From UHGV virus genome UHGV-0116223: DNA of 23,152 bases. One strand, written 5' to 3'. The position numbers and the translations under genes are program-made. This DNA comes from a virus. Positions within the stretch are counted from its first letter, which is position 1, and each line of letters starts with the position of its first letter. The notes under the pieces are model-generated. The model worked only from the letters and a program-made list of their open reading frames with translations, made no database searches and was not told where the DNA came from. Shown here one piece after another: positions 2,938 through 23,102 of this stretch.

Positions 2938-2939
2938 AA

Positions 2940-4170: not shown

Positions 4171-4269
4171 AACCTTTTCGATAATATAAGAAAAAGTGAT
4201 TTTCATGTTGGTTTACTTAAGCCAAGTAGTACGCGTAGTGTTATTTTAGAAACGCCGCCAAATGTCTGT

Positions 4270-5396: not shown

Positions 5397-5397
5397 C

Positions 5398-5572
5398 CGT
5401 GGCAGGAGGTCCGGACTGAAAAAACTGGTCAGGACATCATCGGCAGGGAACGCACTGCTAGTCTGTAAACTGAACCGACTGGGGCGCAGTATGTGGCATC
5501 TTGTCGTGCTGTTGGAGGAGCTGTGCGAACGTGGTATTAACTTTCGTGCTCTGGCCCAATCTATATTTGCCC
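5398..5572 (+). pseudogene. pinH: serine DNA invertase (Pin/Hin/Gin family) fragment lacking the catalytic N-terminus
   Basis: Frame +1 translation [53 protein letters not shown] aligns with Pin [53 protein letters not shown]. Begins exactly where the IS3 fragment ends. Confidence 0.65.
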
Positions 5573-5972
5573 AACAATGGGGGGACGAATGCTGTAAAAG
5601 TAAAACAATCTGCGATCTCAAAGTTATTGTGTGATTTTTATGTGAGCAGAAGATATTCATCAGAAACGATTATGTAAATCATTTTATTTTGCCAACGGCC
5701 TCATTGTCGAAAGAAAAAAATACGCCCGTATTTCCTGAATGGATTGACTTTTTTATCCAACCACACTTCAGCGCACTGCGTTTAAAAAATGCCTCATTCT
5801 TATGCGGAATATCATCATTTCATCATGATGTCTTTGATGAGCGGTGAACACAATACACTTGCGCTGTCTCTTCAGGATGAATCCCCTGGTCTGGTGCCTG
5901 TGGGCTGATGTTGCAGCAAAGCTAAGGTCGCTTAAACGCTACTCAGTATTCACTTTTCAGAGGATGAAATTT

Positions 5973-8900
5973 ATGAACAGGACCAGTCCCTATTATTGTC
6001 GCCGCTCAGTACTTTCCTTATTGATATCTGCCTTGATATATGCCCCGCCCGGGATGGCTGCCTTCACTACTAATGTTATTGGTGTGGTAAACGATGAGAC
6101 TGTAGATGGCAACCAAAAAGTGGATGAACGAGGTACAACAAATAACACTCATATTATCAACCATGGCCAGCAGAATGTTCATGGCGGGGTATCTAATGGA
6201 AGTCTTATTGAATCTGGTGGATATCAAGATATAGGAAGTCATAACAATTTTGTGGGGCAGGCTAATAATACAACCATTAACGGTGGCAGACAGTCAATTC
6301 ATGACGGGGGTATTTCCACAGGTACGACAATCGAGAGTGGCAATCAGGACGTTTATAAAGGGGGTATCAGCAATGGAACGACAATTAAGGGCGGTGCTTC
6401 ACGCGTAGAGGGAGGGAGTGCGAATGGAATACTCATTGATGGTGGTAGCCAGATAGTAAAAGTTCAAGGGCATGCTGATGGTACAACGATAAATAAGTCT
6501 GGCTCTCAGGACGTAGTACAAGGAAGTCTGGCAACGAACACAACCATAAATGGTGGTCGACAGTATGTTGAACAGAGCACAGTAGAAACAACAACCATTA
6601 AAAATGGCGGTGAGCAAAGAGTATATGAGAGCCGTGCGCTGGACACGACGATTGAAGGCGGAACTCAGTCTCTGAATAGTAAGTCAACGGCAAAAAATAC
6701 GCATATCTATTCTGGTGGCACGCAAATTGTTGATAACACCAGCACCTCGGATGTTATTGAAGTTTATTCTGGTGGCGTGCTTGATGTTAGTGGTGGTACG
6801 GCAACAAATGTTACCCAGCACGATGGTGCAATTTTAAAAACTAACACTAACGGTACGACGGTGAGCGGTACGAATAGTGAAGGTGCATTCTCCATCCACA
6901 ATCACGTGGCAGACAATGTGTTGCTGGAAAACGGTGGTCATTTAGACATAAACGCATATGGTTCGGCAAACAAGACGATTATTAAAGATAAAGGAACAAT
7001 GTCAGTTTTAACCAATGCTAAAGCTGATGCGACCCGAATAGATAATGGCGGGGTTATGGATGTTGCAGGAAACGCGACAAATACCATAATTAATGGTGGC
7101 ACACAGAATATTAATAATTATGGCATAGCCACAGGCACCAATATCAACAGCGGAACGCAAAATATCAAAAGCGGCGGGAAAGCTGACACAACAATTATAT
7201 CCTCCGGGAGCCGGCAGGTTGTTGAGAAAGATGGTACGGCAATTGGCAGCAATATTAGCGCCGGAGGCTCGCTGATTGTCTATACCGGCGGTATTGCACA
7301 TGGGGTTAACCAGGAGACGGGCAGTGCTTTAGTTGCCAACACGGGTGCAGGGACTGATATCGAAGGATACAACAAGCTCTCTCACTTCACTATTACCGGA
7401 GGGGAGGCTAATTATGTTGTGCTGGAAAATACCGGCGAACTGACGGTAGTGGCTAAAACCTCGGCGAAAAATACTACCATTGATACTGGCGGTAAGCTGA
7501 TTGTCCAGAAGGAGGCTAAAACAGATAGCACCAGACTTAATAATGGCGGCGTTCTGGAGGTTCAGGACGGTGGTGAGGCTAAGCATGTTGAGCAACAATC
7601 CGGCGGCGCATTAATTGCTTCCACGACCTCCGGAACACTTATCGAAGGAACCAACAGTTATGGTGATGCTTTCTACATCAGGAATTCAGAAGCTAAAAAT
7701 GTAGTGCTGGAAAACGCTGGCTCATTAACAGTCGTCACTGGTTCCCGCGCAGTTGACACGATTATTAATGCCAACGGCAAAATGGATGTTTATGGAAAAG
7801 ATGTTGGCACTGTACTCAATAGTGCTGGCACCCAAACAATATATGCCAGTGCCACTTCTGATAAAGCAAATATCAAAGGTGGCAAGCAAACGGTATATGG
7901 TTTAGCCACTGAAGCAAATATCGAAAGTGGTGAACAAATTGTTGATGGTGGGTCAACAGAGAAAACACACATCAATGGTGGCACGCAAACCGTTCAGAAT
8001 TATGGTAAGGCAATCAATACCGATATCGTCTCTGGCCTACAACAAATTATGGCAAACGGGACAGCGGAAGGTTCCATTATTAATGGGGGTTCACAGGTAG
8101 TTAATGAGGGCGGTCTGGCTGAAAACTCGGTGCTTAATGACGGCGGCACACTCGATGTGCGGGAGAAAGGCAGCGCAACGGGGATACAGCAGAGTAGCCA
8201 GGGCGCTTTGGTTGCAACCACCAGGGCGACGCGGGTCACAGGAACACGCGCGGATGGCGTCGCGTTCAGCATCGAGCAGGGTGCGGCGAACAATATCCTG
8301 CTGGCAAATGGCGGCGTGTTAACCGTGGAGTCAGACACCTCTTCTGACAAAACACAGGTCAATATGGGCGGACGGGAGATCGTCAAAACAAAAGCCACTG
8401 CGACAGGCACGACGCTCACCGGCGGTGAACAAATTGTCGAGGGTGTGGCGAATGAGACAACAATTAACGACGGCGGAATACAAACAGTTTCAGCTAACGG
8501 AGAGGCAATAAAAACAAAGATCAATGAAGGCGGTACGCTGACAGTCAACGATAATGGCAAAGCGACAGATATCGTCCAGAACAGCGGTGCCGCTCTCCAG
8601 ACGAGCACGGCTAACGGTATTGAAATCAGCGGTACTCACCAGTACGGTACTTTTTCCATTTCCGGCAATTTAGCGACCAATATGTTGCTGGAAAATGGCG
8701 GTAATTTATTGGTATTAGCAGGTACCGAAGCTCGCGACTCCACGGTTGGCAAGGGTGGGGCAATGCAAAACCTGGGTCAGGACTCCGCCACAAAGGTTAA
8801 CTCTGGCGGGCAATATACCCTTGGGCGGTCAAAAGATGAGTTTCAGGCTCTGGCCCGGGCAGAAGATCTCCAGGTCGCTGGCGGTACGGCAATCGTCTAC

Positions 8901-10553
8901 GCAGGTACGCTGGCGGATGCATCGGTCAGTGGCGCGACAGGAAGCCTGTCGTTAATGACGCCACGGGATAATGTTACGCCAGTTAAACTCGAAGGGGCGG
9001 TCCGGATTACCGATAGCGCGACATTGACTCTGGGAAATGGCGTCGATACCACGCTTGCCGACCTGACGGCTGCCAGCCGGGGCAGTGTCTGGCTTAACAG
9101 CAATAATTCCTGTGCAGGTACCAGCAACTGCGAATATAGAGTAAACAGTTTGCTACTCAACGACGGTGATGTTTATTTGTCAGCACAAACAGCAGCGCCT
9201 GCCACAACTAACGGTATCTACAATACGCTGACAACCAATGAACTTTCCGGTAGCGGTAATTTCTACCTGCATACCAACGTTGCAGGCTCCCGGGGCGATC
9301 AACTGGTCGTCAACAACAACGCCACTGGTAATTTTAAAATCTTTGTTCAGGATACCGGCGTCAGCCCACAGTCTGACGACGCGATGACGCTGGTGAAAAC
9401 AGGGGGAGGGGATGCTTCGTTTACGCTGGGCAATACCGGCGGTTTCGTTGATCTTGGGACCTATGAGTATGTCCTGAAAAGTGACGGCAACAGCAACTGG
9501 AACCTGACCAATGATGTCAAACCCAACCCGGACCCCATCCCAAATCCAAAGCCAGACCCAAAACCCGATCCAAAGCCAGACCCAAATCCAAAACCAGACC
9601 CTACTCCCGATCCAACGCCGACACCCGTTCCGGAGAAACGCATTACGCCTTCTACGGCAGCCGTACTCAATATGGCAGCAACATTACCGTTGGTATTTGA
9701 TGCTGAGCTAAACAGTATTCGCGAGCGGTTGAACATAATGAAAGCGAGTCCACACAACAATAATGTCTGGGGGGCGACGTATAACACCCGTAATAATGTC
9801 ACCACCGATGCGGGTGCCGGGTTTGAGCAGACGCTGACCGGAATGACAGTGGGGATCGACAGCCGTAATGATATTCCTGAAGGAATTACCACGCTAGGCG
9901 CTTTTATGGGCTATTCCCATTCACATATCGGTTTTGATCGCGGAGGACATGGCAGTGTGGGCAGTTATTCTCTGGGCGGCTATGCCAGTTGGGAACATGA
10001 AAGTGGTTTCTATCTGGACGGTGTCGTGAAGCTGAACCGTTTTAAAAGTAACGTAGCAGGTAAAATGAGCAGCGGTGGAGCCGCCAATGGCAGTTACCAC
10101 AGCAACGGGCTGGGCGGTCACATTGAAACCGGGATGCGATTTACCGATGGTAACTGGAACCTGACGCCGTATGCATCGTTAACGGGGTTCACCGCTGATA
10201 ACCCCGAATATCATTTATCCAATGGCATGAAATCGAAATCAGTCGATACCCGCAGTATATATCGTGAACTGGGCGCAACGCTGAGTTACAACATGCGTCT
10301 GGGGAACGGTATGGAAGTTGAGCCGTGGCTGAAGGCGGCTGTGCGCAAAGAATTTGTCGATGATAACCGGGTGAAAGTGAATAGTGACGGTAATTTCGTC
10401 AATTATTTGTCGGGCAGACGTGGAATATACCAGGCAGGTATTAAAGCCTCATTCAGCAGTACGTTAAGCGGGCATCTTGGGGTGGGGTATAGCCATAGTG
10501 CCGGTGTGGAATCCCCGTGGAACGCGGTAGCTGGTGTGAACTGGTCGTTCTGA
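5973..10553 (+). CDS. ypjA: AIDA-I-type autotransporter adhesin (1526 aa): extended signal peptide, beta-helical passenger, Pro-rich linker, C-terminal beta-barrel
   Basis: MKF-MNRTSPYYCRRSVLSLLISALIYA extended signal peptide (ATGs at 5964 and 5973, GAGG upstream). About 19-aa degenerate repeats (TTINGGxQxV...GG). PNPDPIPNPKPDPKPDP linker. C-terminal aromatic-rich barrel ending ...AGVNWSF. TGA at 10551-10553. Length 1526 aa from 5973 matches recalled K-12 ypjA. Confidence 0.9.
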   Translation: MNRTSPYYCRRSVLSLLISALIYAPPGMAAFTTNVIGVVNDETVDGNQKVDERGTTNNTHIINHGQQNVHGGVSNGSLIESGGYQDIGSHNNFVGQANNTTINGGRQSIHDGGISTGTTIESGNQDVYKGGISNGTTIKGGASRVEGGSANGILIDGGSQIVKVQGHADGTTINKSGSQDVVQGSLATNTTINGGRQYVEQSTVETTTIKNGGEQRVYESRALDTTIEGGTQSLNSKSTAKNTHIYSGGTQIVDNTSTSDVIEVYSGGVLDVSGGTATNVTQHDGAILKTNTNGTTVSGTNSEGAFSIHNHVADNVLLENGGHLDINAYGSANKTIIKDKGTMSVLTNAKADATRIDNGGVMDVAGNATNTIINGGTQNINNYGIATGTNINSGTQNIKSGGKADTTIISSGSRQVVEKDGTAIGSNISAGGSLIVYTGGIAHGVNQETGSALVANTGAGTDIEGYNKLSHFTITGGEANYVVLENTGELTVVAKTSAKNTTIDTGGKLIVQKEAKTDSTRLNNGGVLEVQDGGEAKHVEQQSGGALIASTTSGTLIEGTNSYGDAFYIRNSEAKNVVLENAGSLTVVTGSRAVDTIINANGKMDVYGKDVGTVLNSAGTQTIYASATSDKANIKGGKQTVYGLATEANIESGEQIVDGGSTEKTHINGGTQTVQNYGKAINTDIVSGLQQIMANGTAEGSIINGGSQVVNEGGLAENSVLNDGGTLDVREKGSATGIQQSSQGALVATTRATRVTGTRADGVAFSIEQGAANNILLANGGVLTVESDTSSDKTQVNMGGREIVKTKATATGTTLTGGEQIVEGVANETTINDGGIQTVSANGEAIKTKINEGGTLTVNDNGKATDIVQNSGAALQTSTANGIEISGTHQYGTFSISGNLATNMLLENGGNLLVLAGTEARDSTVGKGGAMQNLGQDSATKVNSGGQYTLGRSKDEFQALARAEDLQVAGGTAIVYAGTLADASVSGATGSLSLMTPRDNVTPVKLEGAVRITDSATLTLGNGVDTTLADLTAASRGSVWLNSNNSCAGTSNCEYRVNSLLLNDGDVYLSAQTAAPATTNGIYNTLTTNELSGSGNFYLHTNVAGSRGDQLVVNNNATGNFKIFVQDTGVSPQSDDAMTLVKTGGGDASFTLGNTGGFVDLGTYEYVLKSDGNSNWNLTNDVKPNPDPIPNPKPDPKPDPKPDPNPKPDPTPDPTPTPVPEKRITPSTAAVLNMAATLPLVFDAELNSIRERLNIMKASPHNNNVWGATYNTRNNVTTDAGAGFEQTLTGMTVGIDSRNDIPEGITTLGAFMGYSHSHIGFDRGGHGSVGSYSLGGYASWEHESGFYLDGVVKLNRFKSNVAGKMSSGGAANGSYHSNGLGGHIETGMRFTDGNWNLTPYASLTGFTADNPEYHLSNGMKSKSVDTRSIYRELGATLSYNMRLGNGMEVEPWLKAAVRKEFVDDNRVKVNSDGNFVNYLSGRRGIYQAGIKASFSSTLSGHLGVGYSHSAGVESPWNAVAGVNWSF
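9520..9630 (+). repeat. imperfect tandem 12/24-bp repeats encoding the (P-x-P-D/K) autotransporter linker
   Basis: ccaaagccagacccaaa occurs at 9546-9562 and 9570-9586, embedded in a run of cc(a/c)(a/g)a(c/t)cc(a/g)ga(c/t) units. Confidence 0.6.
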
Positions 10554-10564
10554 CCATCAACGAA

Positions 10565-10611
10565 AAAGCCCACATCTGTGGGCTTTCATGTTACCAGGAG
10601 CCGCGGCTCCT
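10565..10611 (+). terminator. tandem hairpins downstream of the autotransporter gene
   Basis: Perfect 10-bp inverted repeat aaagcccaca/tgtgggcttt (10565-10586) followed by T-rich tract, then perfect 16-nt palindrome aggagccgcggctcct (10596-10611) followed by ttgcgtatcctttt. Confidence 0.55.
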
Positions 10612-10702
10612 TTGCGTATCCTTTTATGTCTCCTCACCGTCTGGTCGGTGTTTTGCTGAGACTTCTAACTTCCTGTTTTTGTTGGTGTTGTCCTTACACC
10701 GT

Positions 10703-10743
10703 CCAATCATGATTGGCTGGCGGGAGTTGAACCCGTGTCCGAA
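10703..10743 (-). other. attachment-site remnant: 28-nt ssrA (tmRNA) 3'-end-like core next to a 14-bp palindrome
   Basis: Minus strand 10743-10716 reads TTCGGACACGGGTTCAACTCCCGCCAGC, matching the recalled ssrA 3' region TTCGGACGCGGGTTCAACTCCCGCCAGC with 1 mismatch; the terminal TCCACCA is absent. Adjacent perfect palindrome ccaatcatgattgg (10703-10716). GC content and gene content change at this point. Confidence 0.55.
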
Positions 10744-10818
10744 TATTTGCAATGCGTTGATTTATAACGAATAAAATTTAAAGTTGGTTCTTACGGCTCT
10801 TTTGCGGATATTTTACTA

Positions 10819-11637
10819 TCAATTCGTAGTCCTGCCATATTTACGTTTTTTCTTGCGGTTTGTTTCTGGTTTCTTCTCTCGGTTATTGTCTACTTTTTCA
10901 TGTATATCCATATTGAACCAAGAAGCATGCGAAACCTCACTTAATGGAAATATGATACTGGTATCAACTCCATCAAGATCGTTGTAATCATTTGAAAACA
11001 GGACCCTTAGTGTGTCCTTGTCCCTGTAACCAGATATGATTGGGCTAATAGAAATTTCAAGGTTAGGGCCTTGTTTTTCGTTTGGCTCACTAATCATGTT
11101 AACTGTTCCGACATATACTTTGCGGCATTTCAGGCTTATCAGTACCGGTCTGTTTGTAGTCGCTGAATCAAAGAATAGCTGACCAAGTGAGCCATCAGAC
11201 AACAGTTTTTCCAACTCATTAAGCCTGATTAGTTGCTTTGCGAAATTGATAGAAATTGCATTATTGGATGCAGAACTAATAGTTTTTGCTGCCACAAACA
11301 TACGAAATTTGCATATCTGCAACCAAATAAAAGCAACTCCACAAGTCGCCACTGATAGCAGGATGAGCCATGATGTTATCCTGTTTTCTTTAGGGTCTGC
11401 ACTACCATCAATAAGATGTGATACCCATGTGACCAGTGTAAGGCTTGGTATAAAGTACTTGGTTGCATACGCCAGCACGACTGCAACAATGAACGAGTAC
11501 ACACCGTACGTGGCCACCTTCATATAGAGAAGCTGGCCGTCGTAACGGTGGAGTCGATAGAATAATTTGATGTTATGGGGCGATGTAACCAGTAAGGATC
11601 CACTTACTAAAAGTGGAATGATCAGCAATGCAAACAT
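10819..11637 (-). CDS. hypothetical membrane protein (272 aa): three N-terminal TM helices, soluble C-terminal domain, Lys/Arg-rich tail; second gene of cargo operon
   Basis: ATG at 11635-11637 lies 3 nt after the TAA of the upstream gene (translational coupling). About 38% GC versus about 55% in phage structural genes. Hydrophobic segments at residues 1-17, 40-62 and 85-107. No motif I can assign. Confidence 0.7.
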   Translation of the reverse strand: MFALLIIPLLVSGSLLVTSPHNIKLFYRLHRYDGQLLYMKVATYGVYSFIVAVVLAYATKYFIPSLTLVTWVSHLIDGSADPKENRITSWLILLSVATCGVAFIWLQICKFRMFVAAKTISSASNNAISINFAKQLIRLNELEKLLSDGSLGQLFFDSATTNRPVLISLKCRKVYVGTVNMISEPNEKQGPNLEISISPIISGYRDKDTLRVLFSNDYNDLDGVDTSIIFPLSEVSHASWFNMDIHEKVDNNREKKPETNRKKKRKYGRTTN

Positions 11638-11640
11638 TTG

Positions 11641-11889
11641 TTAGTCGTCATTGTCCATTGAGTTAGCTTTAGCGGCTGCAACAGCTTTTGCATCCTGCTC
11701 GACGAATTTTCTAGCTGCTTTCCTAAGCTGAGTGATTTTTTCTGGGTCAGTAGATGGGTCTACAATAACTGCACCACGCCCTACGACCTTGATGTTTTTA
11801 ACACCAGATTTGTTCAAACGATCGGCCATGGCTTGTCCGCCTTTGACCAAATCATTCAGCCCAAACATCTTCATGACTAGTTCTGACAT
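11641..11889 (-). CDS. hypothetical small soluble protein (82 aa); first gene of cargo operon
   Basis: ATG at 11887-11889 with AGGAGG RBS at 5-nt spacing (plus 11895-11900). Hydrophilic, Ala/Lys-rich, acidic C-terminus (MDNDD). No recognisable domain. Confidence 0.7.
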   Translation of the reverse strand: MSELVMKMFGLNDLVKGGQAMADRLNKSGVKNIKVVGRGAVIVDPSTDPEKITQLRKAARKFVEQDAKAVAAAKANSMDNDD

Positions 11890-12184
11890 AAAGACCTCCT
11901 TTCAGTCCCCCCAATGTATCCTTTTGAGGCATTTATTGCTCCCCGCAGAACGGGGCGCGGGATTTTACCATAATCTACGTACTGGCTCCAAGATTTCCCG
12001 CGTGTTCCTAGTACTAGGACAGCTGCCTGAGTACCAAGTTCACCTATAACATATATGCTTGGTTCGAATTTTTGCAAGGTAAAAAGTGCCTTATGTTTAA
12101 GTATGTATGATGTGGATATGACGAACATAACCACATCACAAATAACTTTTTATCAGGTTTCAGTGGCTATTTGTTCGGGCAGCA

Positions 12185-13360
12185 TCAAGCCTGTTTTGTA
12201 TCATTAGTATTTTTAGCGGTATGTCCGTCATATGCAGCAAGGTAACTGCCATAGTGACGAAATAGCATTTCTGGTCCCTTATGGCCCATCTGGCCTGCAA
12301 GCCAGAACAGGTTCGCACCACGGCTGATATGGCTGGTGGCGAATGTATGCCTGGTCTGATATGGGTTACGGTACCGGATACCTGCTTTACGTAAGGTTGG
12401 TATCCACGCTTTTTTCCTTATCGCATCGGCGCTGGCCCACGGTTTGTTTGTCTTTGGATCTTCAAAGACAGTAGCATCCTTCATGAATGTAAATGGCTTC
12501 TGATTTATCAGCGCCAACATTGCCTCTTCTGTCAGTTCAACTTTACGAGTACCGGCTTTTGTCTTTGTTCCTTTGATAACACCGACAACACTTGCGCTCT
12601 GGACATGGGCAGTTTTTCCAACAAAGTCGATATCACGCCATCGAAGGGCACATAATTCAGAACTACGCAGGCCTGTATGTATAGCGAACCGGAACAGATT
12701 TTCCCATTGTTTGTTTCCGGCTGCTGCTAGTAATGCATCAACTTCTGCTGGTGATAGCGGATCAACCACGTAGCTGCTTTCTGCTTCTGACTTATCACTT
12801 TGGTAGCGCGAAGCAGTTACCAACGATACGGGGTTAATTTGAAGTACCCCATCGGTTACGGCTTCATCAAGTGCTGACCGCAGGAAAGATAACTGGTTGC
12901 GAATTGTTTTTGAGGTCGTTTTCTGGCTTTGAATCCACGCTTTCAGGATTGCTGGTGTTAATTCACTTGCAGGGCAAATGTGGAGTGAGGCTAACGCACT
13001 ACGGCATTTTTTATAACCACCAATCGTAGAGGGTGAAAGTTTTCTCGTTTCGCAGATTTCAAGGTATTCGTCCAGGTACATTTTTACCGTTTTGCCTGCA
13101 GCAGCATTACCAAAAATTTTCAAACGAGCAGAACGGGGAAAATATTCCGCATAAATGAATGTTCCCCTTTCGATCTTATTATGAATTTCGCCGAGTGTGC
13201 GCTCGGCGTATTTTATGTTCTTTGGTATTACTTCCAGATTGGAAAGAGGCTCACGACATTTAACTCCTTTGTAGGTGAAAGTTATATTGATCGTTTCGCC
13301 CTGGCGGTGTTTCCTGATTGTTACGCCGCGCGGTAGTTTGAGCAGTTTTGTCTGGCCCAT
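12185..13360 (-). CDS. phage tyrosine integrase (site-specific recombinase)
   Basis: 391 aa. Catalytic-domain motifs TGLRSSELCALRWRDID, RHTFATSHISRG, LAGQMGH and RHYGSY (Arg-His-Arg-Tyr set). GAGG RBS before the ATG at 13360. Overlapped at its 5' end by the excisionase-like gene. Confidence 0.93.
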   Translation of the reverse strand: MGQTKLLKLPRGVTIRKHRQGETINITFTYKGVKCREPLSNLEVIPKNIKYAERTLGEIHNKIERGTFIYAEYFPRSARLKIFGNAAAGKTVKMYLDEYLEICETRKLSPSTIGGYKKCRSALASLHICPASELTPAILKAWIQSQKTTSKTIRNQLSFLRSALDEAVTDGVLQINPVSLVTASRYQSDKSEAESSYVVDPLSPAEVDALLAAAGNKQWENLFRFAIHTGLRSSELCALRWRDIDFVGKTAHVQSASVVGVIKGTKTKAGTRKVELTEEAMLALINQKPFTFMKDATVFEDPKTNKPWASADAIRKKAWIPTLRKAGIRYRNPYQTRHTFATSHISRGANLFWLAGQMGHKGPEMLFRHYGSYLAAYDGHTAKNTNDTKQA

Positions 13361-13527
13361 TTTGCAACCTCACTAAGATCAATCCACCTCTCCTTAACGC
13401 CTTCAACCTTTAAAACCTGAACACCTTCACGCCAAACACCGCGCTGTACACGTTTGTTTATTGCTTCAGGAGTTTCGCCAGTTTCTTTGCAATAAGTTGA
13501 GATTGGAACACAATCGAGGTTCAGCAT
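13321..13527 (-). CDS. putative excisionase / small DNA-binding protein (about 68 aa)
   Basis: Small basic ORF immediately upstream of int and overlapping its start by 40 nt. GGAG RBS 6 nt before the ATG at 13525-13527 (the table start at 13539 is a GTG further upstream). Call rests on position and size only. Confidence 0.5.
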   Translation of the reverse strand: MLNLDCVPISTYCKETGETPEAINKRVQRGVWREGVQVLKVEGVKERWIDLSEVAKWARQNCSNYRAA

Positions 13528-13586
13528 ATGTTTCTCCACTTAGCCCGCTGCACACGGGCAGTAATATCAAATTCCAGTCCTGATAA

Positions 13587-13802
13587 TTAATTTTGTTCCC
13601 TGGTTGCTACCTGTTTTATTGGCCTGATGCTGTCCAGTAGCAGACGGCGACGCATGTTAGGTGCCCCCCAACGGTAACCAGTCTTTTTGTCGTAGGATTC
13701 ACAACGTCCGGCAACCCAGGACGTTTCAGTGGAATGTAATTTCATCCGCTTTTCACCGTCTCGGGTGATAACAATTCCTGTATGAGTTTTTATCACGCTC
13801 AT
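13587..13802 (-). CDS. hypothetical phage early protein (71 aa)
   Basis: ATG overlaps the stop of the upstream gene (ATGA, 13799-13802), indicating translational coupling. Confidence 0.5.
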   Translation of the reverse strand: MSVIKTHTGIVITRDGEKRMKLHSTETSWVAGRCESYDKKTGYRWGAPNMRRRLLLDSIRPIKQVATREQN

Positions 13803-14161
13803 TTCTTAGTCTCTGGTGCTTTCGGCATTACTGCCCAGTGAGTGATATTGACGTTTTCAAGGTCCCCGACCTGAAATGTCCACTGCCATTCTCCGGTTTC
13901 TTTTTGTCCCCAGGTGTACCAGAGAGAACGCCAGCCAATCAGCCAGCCTTCTCCGTTAGCATCAAATAACAGAACACTTTCATTTGCTGGTGGCAGTTCA
14001 GCTGACACTGGTATTATTTTGCTTTCCAGTGCCGCACATTTAGCTTCAAGCGCGTCGAATTTACGTACCAGGTACTCAGCATTTGTTTCGTTCACTTTCA
14101 GATCTCGCGGTACACATTTCCCGCGAAGAAACCCTTCCATTTCGAAAACATTCATGCGCAT
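13799..14161 (-). CDS. phage protein with DUF551-like C-terminus (120 aa; YfdS-like)
   Basis: C-terminal WxxGxxxTGEWQW...THWAVMPKAPE resembles the DUF551 signature common in lambdoid early regions. GGAG RBS. Length matches recalled CPS-53 YfdS. Confidence 0.6.
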   Translation of the reverse strand: MRMNVFEMEGFLRGKCVPRDLKVNETNAEYLVRKFDALEAKCAALESKIIPVSAELPPANESVLLFDANGEGWLIGWRSLWYTWGQKETGEWQWTFQVGDLENVNITHWAVMPKAPETKK

Positions 14162-14688
14162 TTGCGTAACTCCGATAATTCGTTAAAGCGTTCCATAAAC
14201 ATCCCGTAGGCATGGCCTGGAGCCAGTGGAATCACGTTGAACATCTCTGTTGCCGGGATACCTTCCAGCACAGGCCAGAAAGAGCCATCATCAAGCCCGA
14301 GATCGCGGCGTTCGGTTGCCAGCATGATGAGATCGGCATATTTCACTGGCGTGCTCATAACAGGAGGTAACCCGTATTTCTCACGGATTACGGCGTCTAT
14401 TTTTTCTTCCATCCGTTTATAGTCAGGAAGAAGTCGTTTCAGTGGTGCGGGGATGTCTTGGCAATACGCTTCTGTTGCATCATGCATTAACGCTTCAAAA
14501 GCAAATTCCTGCGGCACCAGCTGGCTGCAAAGAACCGCATGTTGGGCGACGCTGTAGAAGTGCGAAAGATGACCGGCAAAGCGACAGATATTTGAAAGGG
14601 AAACCGCGATATCGTTAATATCGATGTCGTCTTTATTTATCCTGTCATAATAAAAATGCTTCCCGGAAAAAGTTTTAATAAATGACAT
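14152..14688 (-). CDS. HD-domain phosphohydrolase (YfdR/YfbR-like 5'-deoxynucleotidase family), about 178 aa
   Basis: H...HD metal-binding motifs (RFAGHLSHFYSVAQH, LMHDATEAY). Probable start is the ATG at 14686-14688 with GGAG RBS (the table ORF starts 9 codons earlier). Confidence 0.75.
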   Translation of the reverse strand: MSFIKTFSGKHFYYDRINKDDIDINDIAVSLSNICRFAGHLSHFYSVAQHAVLCSQLVPQEFAFEALMHDATEAYCQDIPAPLKRLLPDYKRMEEKIDAVIREKYGLPPVMSTPVKYADLIMLATERRDLGLDDGSFWPVLEGIPATEMFNVIPLAPGHAYGMFMERFNELSELRKCA

Positions 14689-14781
14689 TTTGTTCTCCAC
14701 GTATATGCGCTGCACCGCGCTGAATTCTGGTAAAAAGAATCCCTCACCATCCGGCGATTATTGAGTAAATTACGTTTCCAT

Positions 14782-14803
14782 AAATGCCCCCGCAGGGGCA
14801 TTT
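14782..14803 (-). terminator. hairpin between the YfdQ-like and HD genes
   Basis: Perfect 9-bp stem aaatgcccc/ggggcattt with 4-nt loop, 13 nt downstream of the stop at 14816; T-rich on the minus-strand 3' side. Confidence 0.45.
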
Positions 14804-14815
14804 GCAGTAATGAAA

Positions 14816-15640
14816 TCAGGCGGTGAAAGTACCAATAAAGGTTTCTACTTTGCTGTCCTTGAATTTCTCAACAAGCAGATCACGAAATTCGTTAGCCATT
14901 TCTTCCTGCACCGCCTCCAGCTGAATAATGCGCAGAACCAGTACAGGACGATCGCCAGTGATAATACTGAGGCGTAATTTAAACGGACGTTCTTTCAGAC
15001 CTTCAAACGGAACGCATTTAAATTCAAATGCCACTGGCATAATGTCTTTGGTCTTCGCTTCGACAGACTCCATCAGGGAGCGTTTGCCGCTGAAGTCATT
15101 ATCTTCAAAATCAGCGGTCTGGTTTGCTTCAATCGTGATTTTACGGACAGCCGCAGCCGCTTTTGTTGCCTGAATAGCGTCACCATTAGCATCAAAGCCC
15201 ACAAGATAGTCGGCCCAGTCTTCAATCCATTCTGCCAGTGACTTCTGGGAGTTACGCTCGCCGTTAACAGACAACAGAGCAGAGAACGGTGCTGTCTTTT
15301 TCAGTTTGAGTGTGGCGGTGTTATCTGCGTGACCTGGTTCATCAATAGTACCCAGGTTAAGCACACTGACGGCACGCATATTATCAGCATCGATAAAGCA
15401 GCGGGTGCCTTCATCTGCAAGATCTTTAGAATAACGGGTAAAGTCATCGATGCTGGCAGTGGAAAGCGCACCACGGAAACGGAAGCGATTTAAATTAAAT
15501 TTTTCCAGATCATGAATGCGGAAATTCTCAGGCAATGCCACAGCATCGGCACCAATCTTACTGATAATTTCATTAACACCCTGAGCAGAAATAAGGGCAT
15601 GGATTTGATTAATTGCGGTTGCGTCTAAGTTCTGAGACAT
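14816..15640 (-). CDS. phage early protein, YfdQ-like (274 aa)
   Basis: 274-aa ORF with GAGGA RBS. Same length and neighbourhood (next to the HD protein) as recalled CPS-53 YfdQ. Homology is recalled, not computed. Confidence 0.65.
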
Positions 15641-15705
15641 AATAAGTCCTCACTATATAAAGATATTCAGTGATGAGATAAATAATCAGTTAATTAAAAA
15701 CGATA

Positions 15706-16068
15706 TTAACGACCTGCTGCGCGGAGTTTTCCGTCAGGTTCACCGGCAAGAGTCAGTAACTGTCCCTGGTCTTCCTGCAGAATAGTCAGGCGACCACCGC
15801 GATTGACATACATCGGCGTTTCGGTGGTGTCTTCTTCGGAAATTTTCCCGCGGTTAGTCGGGCGAACATATGAGAGTTTGTGTTTGATTTTCACACGGTT
15901 CTCATCAAATGGTTCGATTTCCAGGTTGAGTGAGACCTTACCTTTGGTTTTCGTGTTCATCACACCGGAAGCGACTTCACTGAGAACTGCGCCGATTTTG
16001 GTTTCAAATACGCCGCCGTCCAGCTCCCCGATAAATGCCTGCACATCAGTACTGCGTTCGCTAGCCAT
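15706..16068 (-). CDS. phage early protein (120 aa from the ATG at 16068; YfdP-like)
   Basis: GAGGAG RBS 7 nt upstream of the ATG at 16066-16068 (MASERSTD...). Last early gene before the lysis cassette. Confidence 0.6.
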   Translation of the reverse strand: MASERSTDVQAFIGELDGGVFETKIGAVLSEVASGVMNTKTKGKVSLNLEIEPFDENRVKIKHKLSYVRPTNRGKISEEDTTETPMYVNRGGRLTILQEDQGQLLTLAGEPDGKLRAAGR

Positions 16069-16116
16069 TTTGCTGCTCCTCATCATATCGACCCTGCAAG
16101 GCCGATTAGTTTCTCC

Positions 16117-16205
16117 ACAAAACAGAGAAGAACACCTGCGGTGGCAGCCGCCCGGATGGATTGGGTTATGAGCCCGTCGTCCGGTGATGCTCTTCTCTGT
16201 TTTGT
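16117..16205 (+). promoter_or_regulatory. 15-bp perfect inverted repeat (59-nt spacer) bracketing the holin start codons
   Basis: acaaaacagagaaga (16117-16131) and tcttctctgttttgt (16191-16205) are exact reverse complements. Flanking cacc (16133-16136) / ggtg (16183-16186) extend the stem. Encloses the ATGs at 16156 and 16168. Confidence 0.45.
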
Positions 16206-16485
16206 AAAAAGGACGGTATTCTACATAGCAACAGCAGCAGATCTGAGTGCATCGCGCCGACTGGCATATTTTATCGTGTCATATATTGCCGGGATCCTTT
16301 GCTCTGGGTTGGTTGGCTCCAAGCTGGCGCACTTGACCGGATACAGTGATAAACCTCTGGATGCTATTGGTGCCGTAATCGTCTCTGCTTTAGCCGTTAA
16401 AATCCTGACGTTCCTGAATAATCAGGATATCGGCTCGCTGGTGGCGCTCATAACGCGCCGGGGAGGTTCAGGTGGAGCTAAATGA
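16156..16485 (+). CDS. holin (lambda S-like), possible dual-start motif M-D-W-V-M
   Basis: Small protein with 2-3 TM segments and charged C-terminus. C-terminal DIGSLVALITRRGG resembles lambda S DSIGSLIKRFAAKKAG. In-frame ATGs at 16156 and 16168. First gene of the lysis cassette. Confidence 0.7.
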   Translation: MDWVMSPSSGDALLCFVKRTVFYIATAADLSASRRLAYFIVSYIAGILCSGLVGSKLAHLTGYSDKPLDAIGAVIVSALAVKILTFLNNQDIGSLVALITRRGGSGGAK

Positions 16486-16753
16486 CCCGACAGCAACTAT
16501 AAATGCGCTGTTATGTGCTTGTGTTGTTATTACTCTGATGTTTTATCGTCGTGGTTATTCGCGGCATCGTCCTTGGGTTTCACGTTTAGCCTGGCTGATT
16601 ACTGTTACATACAGTGCTGTTCCGTTGGCCTATCTCTGTGGGATTTATCCCCATTCCTCATGGCCCATTATCGTGGCGAACACTATTTTTCTTTCCGTGC
16701 TGGTGGCCGTCAGAGGCAACGTTGCACGTCTGGTTGATCATCTGAGGCACTAA
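16472..16753 (+). CDS. lysis-cassette membrane protein (93 aa, 3 TM); possible second holin or antiholin
   Basis: GTG start with GGGAGG RBS at 6-nt spacing; overlaps the holin stop; ends 1 nt into the endolysin ATG. Three hydrophobic helices. Confidence 0.5.
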   Translation: MELNDPTATINALLCACVVITLMFYRRGYSRHRPWVSRLAWLITVTYSAVPLAYLCGIYPHSSWPIIVANTIFLSVLVAVRGNVARLVDHLRH

Positions 16754-17370
16754 TGAACCAACAATTATTTCAAAAGGCGGCTGGTATTAGCGCCGGGCTG
16801 GCTGCGCGCTGGTTTCCGCACATTGATGCTGCAATGAAAGAGTTTGGAATCACAGCAGTTAACGATCAGGCCATGTTCATTGCACAAGTTGGGCATGAAT
16901 CTGCTGGTTTTACCTCGCTGGTGGAAAGCTTCAACTACTCGGTAGACGGGCTGAAGAAAACCTTTAGTAAACGCCTGACGCCTTATCAGTGTGAAATGCT
17001 GGGGCGTGTCGATGGTAAGCAGGTAGCCCACCAGCCGCAAATAGCCAATCTGGTTTATGGTGACCGCATGGGGAATAACAGCCAGGGTGACGGCTGGAAA
17101 TATCGCGGTCGTGGCCTGCTTCAAATCACCGGCCGCGAGAACTACGCCAAATGCGGTGCGGCGCTGAAGTTGGATCTGATCAGCACACCAGAGTTGCTGA
17201 CACAGGAGAAACATGCAGCCCGTTCTGCTGCATGGTATTTCACATTACGTGGTTGTCTGATGTATTCAGGTGATGTTGTCCGTGTAACGCAGATCATCAA
17301 CGGTGGCCAGAATGGACTGGCTGACAGAAATAGTCGTTATAACAAAGCGCGGGCGGCGTTGCTGGTATGA
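16753..17370 (+). CDS. endolysin, glycoside hydrolase family 19 (chitinase-like lysozyme)
   Basis: [12 protein letters not shown] and [13 protein letters not shown] motifs typical of GH19 phage endolysins. GAGG RBS. Stop overlaps the Rz start (ATGA). Confidence 0.85.
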
Positions 17371-17903
17371 CAGCGGTCTTTGCTTTTGTTCAGGCGCGGT
17401 GGAAAACAATCATTGTTTTGCTGATGTTGGCTGGTGCATTTCTTGCCGGGAACATCTGGAGTGAGCGGGGCTGGCAAAAGAAGTGGGCTGACCACAATAG
17501 CATGGAATCTTCACAGGAAGCGAACGCGCAGACTGCCGCACGCTGGATTGAACAAGGGCGCATAATTGCCCGTGATGAGGCTGTAAAAGATGCACAAGCA
17601 CAAGCCGCTAAATCTGCTGCCACTGCTGCTGGCCTGTCTGCCACTGTTAGCCAGTTGCGTACCGAAGCAACAAAGCTTGCCGCACGCCTGGACGCCGCAA
17701 AGCACACCGCTGATCTTGCCGCTGCCGTCCGAAGCAAAACAACCGACGCCGACGCCGGAATGTTCGCCGACATGCTCGGAGATATTGCAGCAGAAGCTAA
17801 ACGTTATGCTGGAATCGCTGACGAACGCTACACCGCCGGGATGACGTGTGAACGTATTTACGACTCGTTGAGAGAGTCAAATAACGCTATCCCCCACAAT
17901 TGA
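17367..17903 (+). CDS. i-spanin (Rz-like)
   Basis: N-terminal TM helix ([17 protein letters not shown]) followed by Ala/Gln/Lys-rich coiled-coil-like region. Directly follows the endolysin gene. Confidence 0.75.
17590..17844 (+). CDS. o-spanin lipoprotein (Rz1-like) embedded in the +1 frame of Rz
   Basis: Signal peptide [23 protein letters not shown] with lipobox L-A-S-C, then Pro-rich mature region. Entirely nested within 17367-17903. Confidence 0.7.
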
Positions 17904-17969
17904 TTTTTTATCATATTCGAACGACTATGAAGGGTGTAAACAATTATAATCCAGTGATGAATTTTTCAA

Positions 17970-18245
17970 ATGTCAAAGCAAGGATATGCAGTGAGTGGTC
18001 ATAGTGATGGTTTAGCAGATATTTTGAGCATTGTAATTGTATTAGCAGTGGAACATTGGATTATCGCATCTCTCATAGTTGGTTTGATTATGTATCTAGT
18101 GGGGGCGAGCATAAACGAAAATGCTCAGACAAATGCCGGTGCCATTGCATCGGGAATCATAGGGGTATGTGGTCAATTTATTTTTGGTTTTGGCGTTCTG
18201 GCTAGCATTATTGGGATTGTTAAATTCATTTGGACCCACACCTGA
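17970..18245 (+). CDS. small glycine-zipper membrane protein (91 aa), moron
   Basis: Two hydrophobic helices with GxxxG-type repeats (GAIASGIIGVCGQFIFGFGVLASIIG). About 40% GC. Perfect TATAAT at 17945-17950 upstream; hairpin plus T5 terminator downstream. No clear SD (a GTG at 17991 is an alternative start). Confidence 0.55.
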   Translation: MSKQGYAVSGHSDGLADILSIVIVLAVEHWIIASLIVGLIMYLVGASINENAQTNAGAIASGIIGVCGQFIFGFGVLASIIGIVKFIWTHT

Positions 18246-18267
18246 CAGCATCACTTTAGTCAATCAT

Positions 18268-18291
18268 AGCCTCGCAATAGCGGGGCTTTTT
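18268..18291 (+). terminator. intrinsic terminator after the moron gene
   Basis: Stem agcctcgc / gcggggct (8 bp, one G-U pair), loop aata, followed by ttttt. Confidence 0.55.
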
Positions 18292-18309
18292 AACAACTGA
18301 GGTATGAGC

Positions 18310-18507
18310 ATGACAGTAGTTCTTACAGCTAAGCAGATTGAAGACCTAGCAGCATTCGCGAAAGAAGATGGTCAGCCCCAATACACCATCACCACTGGTA
18401 CAATCCCGGAATTCGAAGCGGATGATGGCGAGATTATCCCTGAATACACAGGGCTGATCGCTTACTCAGAGTCACTTGAGCACGGTGTATTGCAACTCGA
18501 CGATTAG
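18310..18507 (+). CDS. small strongly acidic protein (about 65 aa)
   Basis: GAGG at 18299-18302, 7 nt before the ATG at 18310. About 14 Asp/Glu against 2 Lys and 1 His (estimated net charge about -12). Confidence 0.55.
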   Translation: MTVVLTAKQIEDLAAFAKEDGQPQYTITTGTIPEFEADDGEIIPEYTGLIAYSESLEHGVLQLDD

Positions 18508-18570
18508 TGGCATTCAGCAGGCATTCATTAAGTGTCTGCGATAATGCTATACGTTTTTTGGGGAGTGAAT

Positions 18571-18921
18571 ATGCCACCGCGCACACCAAAGGCTTGCCGT
18601 GTTCGCGGCTGTCGCAACACCACAACAGACCCATCTGGCTACTGTGAAAATCACAAAGGTGAAGGCTGGAAGTCCTACAAGCCTGGTCAATCACGGCAGC
18701 AGCGAGGATACGGAACAAAGTGGGAAGTCATCCGGGAGCGGATACTTAAGCGCGACAAAGGGCTGTGTCAGAACCATCTACGGCAGGCGATAGTGAAGCA
18801 GGCGTCCTGCGTGGACCACATCAAGGCGAAGGCCCACGGCGGTACTGATGAAGACAGCAACCTTGAAAGCCTGTGCTGGTCGTGTCACGCAGCGAAGACC
18901 GCGCGTGAGCGGCTCAAGTGA
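18571..18921 (+). CDS. HNH homing-type endonuclease (terminase-associated)
   Basis: GGGGAG RBS before the ATG at 18571. Zinc-finger Cys pairs (CRVRGC...CENH; CWSCH) and the HNH motif region CVDHIKAKAHGG...N. Located immediately upstream of the small terminase. Confidence 0.85.
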   Translation: MPPRTPKACRVRGCRNTTTDPSGYCENHKGEGWKSYKPGQSRQQRGYGTKWEVIRERILKRDKGLCQNHLRQAIVKQASCVDHIKAKAHGGTDEDSNLESLCWSCHAAKTARERLK

Positions 18922-19047
18922 TAATTAATGTCATCATCAGACTGGGGAGGGGGAGGTCAAATCTCTGCGACCGCGCGCCTTCCGGACTGCCCGCCCCATC
19001 GTTTTTTTATACCCGCGAAAAATGAAATTTAACCAGGAGTGCCGCAT

Positions 19048-19542
19048 ATGGCTGGAACGGCGGGGCGTTCCGGGCGTCGCCCCAAGCCAACGGCGCGCAA
19101 GGCGCTGGCCGGAAACCCCGGCAAGCGAGCCCTGAATAAAGATGAACCTGTTTTTACGCCCATCAAAGGTGTTGAGCCACCGGAGTGGTTCACAGAAGAA
19201 GAGCTCCCTCTCGCCACGATCATGTGGCAACTGACAACCAAAGAACTCTGCGGTCAGGGCCTGCTGTGCGTGACTGACCTGGCGGTACTTGAGCGGTGGT
19301 GCGTGGCCTATGAGTTCTGGCGACGTGCCGTGAAAAATATTGCCAGACAGGGCAACACCATCACCGGTGCAATGGGCGGCATGGTCAAAAATCCGGAGCT
19401 GACCGCCAAAAAAGAACAGGAGTCCGAGATGAGCAGCACGGGTGCAATGCTCGGACTCGACCCCAGCAGCCGCCAGCGTCTGATTGGCCTGGCGGGGCAG
19501 AAGAAAGCCACTAACCCGTTTCTGAAAATCATCGAGTCATGA
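19048..19542 (+). CDS. terminase small subunit (P27-like family)
   Basis: AGGAG RBS 9 nt before the ATG at 19048. N-terminal GRSGRRPKP...LAGNPGKR motif. Stop overlaps the TerL start (ATGA). Confidence 0.85.
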
Positions 19543-21272
19543 GCCGGAAATCTTACCCCAACGTAAATGCTGCTAATCAGTATGCCCGTGATGTCGTGCG
19601 CGGAAAGATTGTGGCCTGCCAGTTTGTGATTCAGGCCTGCCAGCGCCATCTTGATGACCTGATGGCGGAAAAAAGTAAGTCGTTTCGTTACCGCTTCGAC
19701 AAGGACCTGGCTGAACGGGCCGCGAAATTTATTCAGCTGTTGCCACACACCAAGGGGGAGTGGGCATTCAAACGGATGCCCATCACGCTGGAGCCGTGGC
19801 AGCTCTTTGTGATCTGCTGTGCGTTTGGCTGGGTCAATAAAGGCTCCCGGCTGCGCCGCTTCCGGGAGGTGTATACCGAAATCCCCCGTAAGAACGGCAA
19901 ATCGGCAATCTCTGCCGGTGTTGCCCTGTATTGTTTTGCCTGTGATAACGAGTTTGGCGCGGAAGTGTATTCCGGTGCCACGACAGAGAAACAGGCGTGG
20001 GAAGTTTTTCGTCCGGCGCGACTGATGTGTAAACGCACACCCATGCTGACGGAAGCGTTCGGGATTGAGGTTAACGCCTCAAACATGAACCGTCCGGAGG
20101 ATGGCGCGCGGTTTGAACCGCTGATCGGCAACCCCGGTGATGGTTCATCACCCCACTGTGCCGTGGTTGATGAATATCACGAGCATGCCACCGATGCGCT
20201 TTATACCACAATGCTTACCGGGATGGGGGCGCGACGTCAGCCACTGATGTGGGCCATCACCACCGCCGGGTACAACATTGAGGGGCCGTGCTACGACAAG
20301 CGGCGGGAAGTCATCGAGATGCTCAACGGCTCGGTGCCTAACGATGAACTGTTCGGGATCATCTATACCGTTGATGAAGGTGACGACTGGATCGACCCGC
20401 AGGTGCTGGAAAAAGCCAATCCAAATATTGGCGTGTCGGTTTATCGCGAATTTTTGTTAAGTCAGCAGCAGCGTGCGAAAAATAACGCCCGTCTGGCAAA
20501 CGTCTTTAAAACAAAACACCTCAATATCTGGGTGTCGGCACGTTCGGCGTATTTCAACCTGGTGAGCTGGCAGAGCTGCGAGGATAAATCACTGTCCCTT
20601 GAGCAGTTCGAGGGGCAACCGTGCATCCTGGCCTTTGACCTGGCGCGTAAGCTGGATATGAACAGTATGGCGCGACTTTATACCCGCGAGATTGACGGTA
20701 AAACGCATTACTACAGTGTGGCTCCGCGCTTCTGGGTACCGTATGACACGGTGTACAGCGTCGAGAAAAATGAAGATCGCCGGACAGCCGAACGCTTTCA
20801 GAAATGGGTGGAGATGGGGGTTCTGACCGTTACCGATGGTGCGGAGGTGGATTATCGCTACATCCTCGAGGAGGCCAAAGCGGCGAACAAAATCAGCCCG
20901 GTCAGCGAGTCACCCATCGACCCCTTCGGGGCGACCGGGCTGTCACATGACCTTGCTGATGAAGACCTGAACCCCGTCACCATCATTCAGAACTACACCA
21001 ACATGTCCGACCCGATGAAAGAGCTGGAAGCGGCAATTGAATCGGGGCGCTTTCATCATGATGGCAATCCCATCATGACCTGGTGTATCGGCAACGTGGT
21101 CGGCAAAACCATTCCGGGTAACGATGATGTGGTGAAGCCTGTCAAGGAGCAGGCGGAAAACAAAATCGATGGTGCGGTTGCACTGATTATGGCGATCGGT
21201 CGGGCAATGCTCAAAGAACCCGACGATTTCCTCTCATCTCTTGATCCGGACGATGCTCTCTTAATTCTATGA
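19539..21272 (+). CDS. terminase large subunit (ATPase/nuclease)
   Basis: 577 aa. Walker-A-like EIPRKNGKS. Typical size and position after TerS. Confidence 0.93.
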
Positions 21273-21430: not shown

Positions 21431-22475
21431 TGCTCTGTTCAGAAGTAAATCACTGGAGAATCCTTCCACCCCGATAACCGGGGATGCCGTTGATACTGAT
21501 GGGCTGTTCCGGGCAGACGTTTATGTCAGTCCTGAAACTTCGATGAAACTGGCTGCGGTGTATTCCTGTATCTATGTCCTGTCTTCCAGCCTTGCCCAGA
21601 TGCCGTTGCATGTTATGCGCAGGCACAATGGGAAGGTTGAGCCCGCACGCGATCATCCGGCGTTTTATCTGGTTCATGATGAGCCCAATACCTGGCAAAC
21701 CAGTTACAAATGGCGCGAACTGAAGCAACGTCACATCCTTGGCTGGGGGAATGGGTATACCTGGGTGAAACGTAATCGTCGCGGTGAAGTCATATCCCTG
21801 GATTGCTGTATGCCGTGGGAAACGACGCTGATGAATACTGGTGGTCGATACACCTACGGTTTGTACAACGAATATGGGGCGTTTGCGATCAGCCCCGACG
21901 ATATGATCCACATCCGTGCGCTGGGTAATAATCAGAAGATGGGGCTGAGTCCGATTATGCAACATGCCGAAACAATAGGCATGGGGATGAGCGGTCAGAA
22001 ATACACAGAAAGCTTCTTCAGCGGTAATGCCCGTCCGGCGGGGATAGTATCCGTTAAAAGCGGACTCAATAAGGACAGCTGGGGCTGGCTTAAAGATCAG
22101 TGGCAGAAGGCATCGCAGGCGTTACGCAGCCAGGAAAACAAAACCATGCTGCTGCCAGCCGATCTGGATTACAAGGCACTGACTGTGTCGCCAGTTGACG
22201 CTCAGATCATTGACATGATGAAACTGAACCGTTCAATGATTGCCGGTATTTTCAATATTCCTGCGCACATGATTAATGACCTCGAAAAAGCCACCTTCTC
22301 CAATATTTCTGCGCAGGCGATTCAGTTTGTCCGCTACACGATGATGCCGTGGGTGACGAACTGGGAGCAGGAGCTTAACCGTCGCTTGTTTATCTGGGGC
22401 GACACCGTTGTCGAGTGCGTGCTTAACAAACTCTGCCCGTCGCATACCTACGTAATTTTTAAATATCCGGAGTAA
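21420..22475 (+). CDS. portal protein (HK97 family), probably C-terminally truncated
   Basis: GTG at 21420 with GGGGGA RBS gives an N-terminus LLDALF typical of HK97-type portals. Conserved central region ([26 protein letters not shown]). Ends after only 351 aa with an atypical tail ([21 protein letters not shown]), and the next gene is tail-fibre-like. Confidence 0.75.
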
Positions 22476-22478
22476 TCC

Positions 22479-23102
22479 ATGCATCGTATAGACACGAAAA
22501 CCGCGCAGAAGGATAAGTTCGGCGCGGGTAAAAACGGTTTTACCCGTGGTAACCCCCAGACAGGCACGCCTGCCACCGATCTGGATGATGACTACTTTGA
22601 CATGTTGCAGGAAGAGCTTTGCAGCGTGGTGGAGACATCCGGTGCCAGTCTGGAGAAGGCGCGGCACGACCAGTTGCTTACCGCGCTTCGTGCGCTGCTG
22701 TTAAGCCGCAAGAATCCGTTTGGCGATATCAAATCGGATGGCACAGTGAAAACGGCTCTCGAAAACCTTGGTTTGGGAGAAGCGGCAAAACGGAATGTGG
22801 GAACAGGAGAAAATCAGATACCTGATATGTCAGCTTATTCATCAGGATCTGGCTGGCAAAAATTGCCTGATGGTTCAATTGAGCAGTGGGGAAGAATTAA
22901 TTTCCCGAATAACGCCGCGGCGGTATCTACAAATGTGACTTTCACCATTCCTTTTACGCAGGAGCCAGACGTAGTGATTGTATATGACGGCGGTTTTGGT
23001 GGTGGGAATATGTGGGGCGCAACTAACTGGACGAAAACAGGTTTCGTTGCTCATTGTAACTATGGCTTTGAAGGTGGAGCCTTCTACGCGAAAGGGCGTT
23101 AA
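22479..23102 (+). CDS. tail-fibre-like protein (207 aa)
   Basis: GGAG RBS. N-terminus [48 protein letters not shown] resembles N-terminal domains I associate with phage tail fibres. Gly-rich C-terminus. Homology not computed. Confidence 0.45.

Follow-up and report, generated by a model that had tools for sequence, protein, structure and literature searches.

Within a window of 23,152 nucleotides, the whole stretch of DNA analyzed here, a short AT-rich segment lies between the lysis genes of a prophage and a small gene for an acidic protein. The features of the locus and of the DNA leading up to it, listed by window position, are as follows.

5844-10553: ypjA/EhaD autotransporter gene
12185-13360, minus strand: site-specific integrase gene
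13799-16086: early-left genes yfdS, yfdR, yfdQ, and yfdP-like
17367-17903, plus strand: left flank, gene for a DUF2514 Rz-like i-spanin (Pfam DUF2514, E = 4e-42)
17590-17844, plus strand: lipoprotein ORF of 84 aa embedded in the +1 frame inside the DUF2514 gene, with the lipobox LLASC and a proline-rich body
About 17886-18264, plus strand: inserted cargo cassette (a probable moron) of about 375 bp, delimited by comparison with the empty sites of L097 and L059 and by GC content
17921-17926, plus strand: weak -35-like hexamer ACGACT with three of six matches and an 18-nt spacer; the GAC core recurs in five of six group-A loci
17945-17950, plus strand: -10 hexamer TATAAT of a putative sigma-70 promoter, conserved across 13 distinct loci
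17970-18245, plus strand: longest ORF, 91 aa from ATG 17970, a start that is not conserved
17980-17984, plus strand: Shine-Dalgarno sequence AAGGA, 6 nt before GTG 17991, with a purine-rich GGA core kept in all loci
17991-18245, plus strand: coding sequence of an 84-aa predicted two-helix protein of PHROG 28582, based on homologue starts, dN/dS, and an AlphaFold2 model
18268-18291, plus strand: intrinsic terminator with stem AGCCTCGC / GCGGGGCT, loop AATA, and a T5 run, based on folding and conservation
18310-18507, plus strand: right flank, gene for a 65-aa acidic protein, phrog_9518 (annotated function unknown), between the cassette and an HNH gene

Judged from its lipobox and proline-rich body, the ORF embedded in the DUF2514 gene is likely an Rz1-type o-spanin.

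The prophage carrying the locus

Comparison with the intact KSC1031 thrW prophage (L001) revealed that the prophage in the window is a deletion derivative of it. Window positions 13808-16218, 16216-21194, and 22391-22768 correspond to positions 6093-8503, 18367-23345, and 38583-38960 of the intact prophage, respectively. Approximately 9.9 kb is missing at 16216-16218, comprising immunity, replication, the antiterminator, the late promoter, and the first 39 holin codons, and approximately 15 kb holding most of the head and tail genes is missing at 21194/22391. The intact form encodes two holin-family genes, Phage_holin_8 and Phage_holin_3_7, the former of which is 5'-truncated in the window. 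The junction at 16216-16218 was sought in 5426 complete E. coli genomes and was absent from all of them, and it is therefore either strain-specific or an assembly join. Since both the antiterminator and the late promoter are deleted, a promoter of its own would be the sole expression route for the cassette gene here, absent read-through from unrelated upstream sequence.

Positions 1-13800 of the window are not phage late-region DNA, and ypjC-like remnants are found within them in addition to the autotransporter gene.

The cassette, its insertion site, and the hairpin behind it

The segment stands out in base composition. Positions 17904-18296 have a GC content of 38.7%, against 51.8% for the lysis genes (16141-17903) and 54.6% for positions 18304-21272, so that the first-pass annotation, made from the sequence alone, came close in estimating about 40%, and flanks of 52-55% set the segment apart as AT-rich. 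That annotation also held the segment to be an insertion, and this was borne out by two viral contigs that share its flanks, L097 and L059, in which the site is empty: the DUF2514 spanin gene is followed by the identical hairpin and then by the 65-aa gene, without the cassette. In both of these contigs the spanin ends ...YDSVRESNNNPIASQ*, with the TAG stop codon inside the hairpin loop, whereas in the window the left end of the cassette has altered the end of the spanin to ...ESNNAIPHN*. The insertion had been placed between the spanin genes and the HNH gene, which holds for the spanin side but not for the other, where the 65-aa ORF comes next. Microhomology (CAAT / CATA) leaves the ends of the cassette uncertain by about 6 nt; when they were examined for terminal repeats or target-site duplications, only these unconvincing microhomologies of 4-5 nt were found.

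Presence of the segment varies among phages and prophages that share the flanks. Only 10 of the 5426 complete E. coli genomes contain it, and a further 23 match only from about position 18257 onward, that is, over the hairpin and the 65-aa gene. Strains KSC1031 and ECZP248 of E. coli are carriers. A search of deposited phage genomes, both for the DNA of the segment and for its protein, returned no carrier. The same slot is occupied in E. coli Nissle 1917 by approximately 170 bp of unrelated sequence, in strain EC2641 by a 76-aa gene together with a reverse-strand YnfU gene, and by other small genes in two phages, SKA5 and the Salmonella phage 118970_sal3, that share about 91% identity with the window in their lysis genes. 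The phrog_9518 gene is kept behind the same hairpin in Nissle 1917 and in other lambdoid prophages having differing lysis and packaging modules. Cargo is found recurrently in the space between the spanin gene and the hairpin.

The hairpin and T5 run reported in the first-pass annotation are present. Positions 18268-18275 pair with 18280-18287, the T5 run occupies 18287-18291, and the structure folds at -16.1 kcal/mol (z = -4.5), with none of 200 shuffled sequences folding as well. When 15 sequences were aligned, 98.3% of cells paired, and three pairs were changed on both sides. A consensus scan of the window called neither a promoter nor a terminator at the cassette, and we therefore relied on conservation and folding; the scan presumably passed over the hairpin because only four T's are left after the full stem.

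The hairpin had also been described as the cassette's own terminator, and this attribution did not hold up. In exact form, the 23-mer GCCTCGCAATAGCGGGGCTTTTT is found in more than 120 IMG/VR contigs (loci L035-L154), many of them from phages free of the cassette, and it has 77 different flanks on each side. The gene upstream of the 23-mer is a same-strand lysis gene in 90 of the 92 copies that were identifiable with a protein panel, and in 57 of 122 copies the hairpin overlaps the stop codon of the last lysis-cassette ORF (at least 50 codons long), the 5' arm supplying its final residues ASQ* and the loop containing the TAG. Since the identical 23-mer ends lysis cassettes in phages that do not have the gene, the terminator is not the cassette's own. 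It is instead shared backbone, a resident end-of-lysis-cassette terminator with the cassette lying directly upstream. The shared 23-nt hairpin could also serve as a docking or recombination junction for cargo exchange, a reading less likely than the one given below for PHROG 28582 as a new family.

The copies of the gene in Enterobacter (group B) are followed by a different hairpin in the same register, which shows compensatory changes, is enclosed by a long outer stem, and travels with the gene. In seven loci (L007, L009, L017, L019, L020, L032, and L033) this hairpin reads AGCTCACC-TGCT-GGTGGGCT, is located within about 1-50 nt past the stop codon, and lies inside a 10-bp outer stem in which AUC/GAU in some copies corresponds to ACC/GGU in others. 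Its tail is a poor U-tract (UUGAUAAU), and the structure may therefore be a stabilizing 3' stem as opposed to a canonical terminator. Matches to the Rfam families STnc100 and isrJ were sub-threshold and driven by the terminator, and were rejected as evidence of an sRNA.

The promoter region, the gene, and the predicted protein

The hexamer TATAAT is found at 17945-17950 exactly as first annotated. A single such hexamer is not above chance, as 18 occur in the window against 15.3 expected, and the case for a promoter therefore rests on conservation across homologous loci. Among the 13 distinct loci the hexamer is TATAAT in 11 and TATACT in two, 29-40 nt before the start codon, and T-A-T-A-x-T together with the following C is invariant in their upstream regions, which average 63% column identity. 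The box is kept in all of these loci although the synonymous sites of the gene are saturated. The upstream regions of the enterobacterial groups share little besides this box, and TATAAT occurs in only 2 of 33 other cargo segments of the same slot. An invariant box amid diverged upstream sequence, and its rarity in other cargo, are good evidence that the -10 box would be functional. The earlier proposal that the segment has its own promoter is supported in part: the -10 box is kept in 13 of 13 loci, but an extended -10 is lacking, the -35 (only three of six matches in the window) is weak throughout the loci, and the site was not called as a promoter by the consensus scan.

The -10 box lies within the palindrome ATTATAAT (window positions 17943-17950), and TATAAT is consequently readable on the minus strand as well. 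Two Enterobacter loci, L032 and L033, have CTATACT as their -10 region, 33 nt before the start codon; a C at -13 is found in the remaining group-B copies. We speculate that the CTATACT form may resemble a -10 of the sigma-S type.

The ORF from ATG 17970 to 18245 is open for the 91 aa originally assigned to the protein, but the conserved start gives a shorter product. GTG 17991 is the aligned start of all of the 84-85-aa homologues and is preceded by AAGGA, while ATG 17970 is replaced by ATT in a locus that is 98% identical (L030). On these grounds the protein is probably 84 aa in length and not 91. A search of 5.8 billion proteins yielded 21 homologous protein clusters from E. coli and Enterobacter, most of them of 84 aa. 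When 1.84 billion representative proteins were searched with a profile, seven matches were returned, five of which were true relatives, two of these being frameshifted copies; the remaining two were long repetitive proteins and were discarded as spurious. With 21 clusters and only three more distant members added by the profile search, the family is very small. The window copy was compared with nine other copies, spanning E. coli and Enterobacter, and dN/dS was 0.02-0.11 where dS was estimable, with synonymous differences saturated (pS about 0.7). The gene is under strong purifying selection and is a real coding sequence.

In some prophages the gene is frameshifted (P0018/L034 at 6001-6309, P0020, and P0021), and one such copy has a 102-aa product extending through the hairpin. 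Some copies are thus in decay.

Three distant family members, P0022, P0023, and P0026 (loci L156 5001-5264, L157 5001-5222, and L160 5001-5228), are found on other phage-like contigs in tight operons with neither TATAAT nor a hairpin nearby. One distant member is flanked by the baseplate-hub and spike genes within a myovirus-type tail module. As these members are in operons without such signals and away from lysis genes, the family is not always found as a moron.

The sole PHROG match of the protein is phrog_28582, whose annotated function is unknown. A Pfam search returned no family of any kind at E ≤ 1, an NCBIfam search with the 84- and 91-aa forms gave only noise far below the family cut-offs, and a PADLOC search for anti-phage defense proteins gave no match. 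A literature search with the RefSeq protein accession found nothing. In a sequence search of the PDB, a match to alpha-synuclein was dismissed as noise. A Foldseek search of the AlphaFold2 model against the PDB and BFVD returned nothing below E = 0.1, the matches being generic helical hairpins. Across Pfam, PHROG, NCBIfam, PADLOC, PDB, and BFVD, no sequence or fold similarity was detected to a characterized exclusion, defense, holin, or toxin family.

The first-pass description of a two-helix membrane protein agrees with both predictions made here. The AlphaFold2 model has two long helices, residues 4-44 and 48-83, at a mean pLDDT of 86.7, and hydrophobicity analysis likewise gives two helices with 19-residue Kyte-Doolittle means of up to 2.4. 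The conserved residues include E21-H22-W23-I-I-A-S-L in helix 1, a loop of I41-N-E-N-A-Q-T-N-x-G-A, a small and polar face of helix 2 formed by G50, S54, G58, Q62, and G66, and K78-F-I-W at the C-terminus. Because lysines are confined to positions near the two termini, the positive-inside rule would put the two ends on the cytoplasmic side and the loop on the periplasmic side. The model and the charge distribution together suggest an inner-membrane protein of N-in/C-in topology with a periplasmic loop.

The label of glycine-zipper protein is apt only as to motif. G50-S54-G58 is present, along with the further small-xxx-small motifs A51-G55, G68-S72, and A71-G75, but no glycine-zipper, YmgE/YeaQ, or holin family of Pfam matched at E ≤ 1, and the kinship with holins or YmgE/YeaQ-like proteins that had been raised for the protein was not upheld. 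Glycine-zipper and YmgE-YeaQ-GlsB profiles were likewise without a match in NCBIfam. The YmgE/YeaQ/GlsB (PF04226) and Pfam glycine-zipper families resemble the cassette protein in being membrane proteins of about 80 aa with small-xxx-small motifs, but YmgE-type proteins have three short helices in place of its two long ones.

Interpretation of the cassette

The insertion, the constraint on the coding sequence, and the conservation of the -10 box and the hairpin are all shown by the present analysis. We take the locus, with a probability of approximately 0.7, to have moron architecture, that is, to be an accessory gene cassette in the late operon of an SfV/e14-like temperate phage. Some 375 bp of foreign AT-rich DNA separates the final codons of the DUF2514 spanin gene from the terminator that closes this gene in cassette-free relatives. 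The cassette brings a putative sigma-70 -10 box, a weak -35, a short 5' untranslated region with a ribosome-binding site, and the 84-residue protein. Transcripts from the cassette promoter would end at the resident hairpin and T5 run, and a stop at this terminator would mean no run-on into the packaging genes. We infer that transcription from the -10 box may take place in the lysogen. The product would be a hairpin of two hydrophobic helices with both ends cytoplasmic, presenting the polar and strictly conserved loop I-N-E-N-A-Q-T-N-x-G-A to the periplasm.

Morons were reportedly defined for HK97 and HK022 by Juhala et al. in 2000 and Hendrix et al. in 2000. The definition for these lambdoid phages is restated in PMC2629481. 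Like the HK97 and HK022 morons, the gene studied here is an extra one that some related phages have and others lack at a single position of the late operon; a putative sigma-70 promoter precedes it and a factor-independent terminator follows it; and its base composition is unlike that of its neighbors. It differs from them in that its terminator, as resident backbone and not part of the insert, pre-existed at the site and is common to many cassette-free phages, and in that its promoter, from which the prophage may express the gene, consists of a -10 box only. An ordinary phage moron, real but unsurprising, is a well-supported description of the locus. The architecture, in which a small gene with a promoter and a terminator lies in a late operon, is a textbook one that leaves current understanding unchallenged, while the comparison of filled and empty sites provides a clean example of cargo slotted between a lysis gene and its terminator.

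HK97 gp15, the product of a moron, and T4 Imm are small inner-membrane superinfection-exclusion proteins. The cassette protein is like them by description, being small, encoded by a phage, predicted to lie in the inner membrane, devoid of an enzymatic domain, and carried as accessory cargo. Tail and baseplate gene clusters are a common place for exclusion genes, and one distant homologue within PHROG 28582 is located in such a cluster. The difference is that no similarity of sequence or fold to annotated exclusion or defense families was detected with PHROG, PADLOC, or BFVD. As the likeliest specific function we suggest, tentatively and speculatively, that the protein might be a prophage-expressed inner-membrane factor acting through its periplasmic loop, for example in superinfection exclusion by blocking DNA entry. 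Were it an exclusion or defense factor, a small and easily tested family would join the membrane proteins through which prophages shape phage-host range in E. coli and Enterobacter. The broader proposition, that PHROG 28582 is a new prophage inner-membrane family whose INENAQTNxGA loop blocks incoming phage DNA or otherwise protects the lysogen, with its own promoter active even in degraded prophages, is somewhat doubtful. A function other than exclusion, lysis accessory, or toxin is equally a matter of speculation, and we consider its chances to be appreciable though short of even.

The location of the gene raises the possibility that it belongs to lysis. In the enterobacterial prophages it is always found directly after the spanin or lysis genes and on the same strand, an orientation which indicates that in the intact phage it would also be transcribed late. 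The product could accordingly be a lysis accessory (an antiholin, a holin helper, or a membrane weakener) that modulates the timing of lysis and is made from a Q-antiterminated transcript together with the holin, endolysin, and spanins, the TATAAT then being incidental. Class II holins or pinholins, such as S21 of phage 21, have two transmembrane helices and N-in/C-in topology, and the cassette protein resembles them in its two hydrophobic helices, its inferred topology, its glycine- and alanine-rich second helix, and its position at the lysis cassette. It departs from them in having no charged, hydrophilic C-terminal cytoplasmic tail, as the sequence ends ...IIGIVKFIWTHT with a single lysine (the last residues being ...VKFIWTHT), and in matching no holin family of Pfam at E ≤ 1 or of PHROG. 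Nor does the gene keep to one set of lysis partners: it follows at least three unrelated lysis-cassette types (Holin_8 with Holin_3_7 and GH19; another holin with Phage_lysozyme and DUF2514; Phage_holin_2 with lysozyme), and it is absent from SKA5 and 118970_sal3, despite their closely similar lysis genes, and from L097, which has the same spanin. The intact prophage, moreover, already has its two holin-family genes. Downstream, the gene precedes at least three packaging modules, with the neighboring gene varying by locus, and upstream 66-460 nt of non-coding DNA, with the conserved -10 box, lies between it and the spanin. The varied lysis cassettes and packaging modules and the non-coding gap argue against a partner-specific lysis role and for portable cargo, and the distant homologues are not near lysis genes. 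We therefore regard a lysis accessory as unlikely.

Still less probable is a membrane-depolarizing toxin or abortive-infection effector, by which is meant a small pore-forming hairpin made at low level from the weak promoter that kills or arrests the cell under phage attack or stress. Polar residues conserved within the hydrophobic helices (E21, H22, S27, S54, and Q62) and the small-residue face are compatible with such an activity, and the best structural matches include the membrane-inserting hairpins of alpha-pore-forming toxins; these matches are non-significant, however, all having E > 0.1 and being the generic helical hairpins described above. The gene adjoins neither a conserved antisense promoter nor a partner gene, the PADLOC search was silent, and at 84 aa the protein is larger than typical type I toxins. 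Finally, the segment might be junk DNA in a degraded prophage, its ORF decaying or non-functional and its promoter- and terminator-like signals due to chance. The heavy deletion of the prophage in the window and the frameshifted copies elsewhere could be read in this way. That explanation has very little to recommend it and is contradicted by the selection analysis, in which the low dN/dS with saturated synonymous sites extends from the E. coli copies to those of Enterobacter. The window also keeps the 84-aa reading frame intact, and both the -10 box and the hairpin are conserved.
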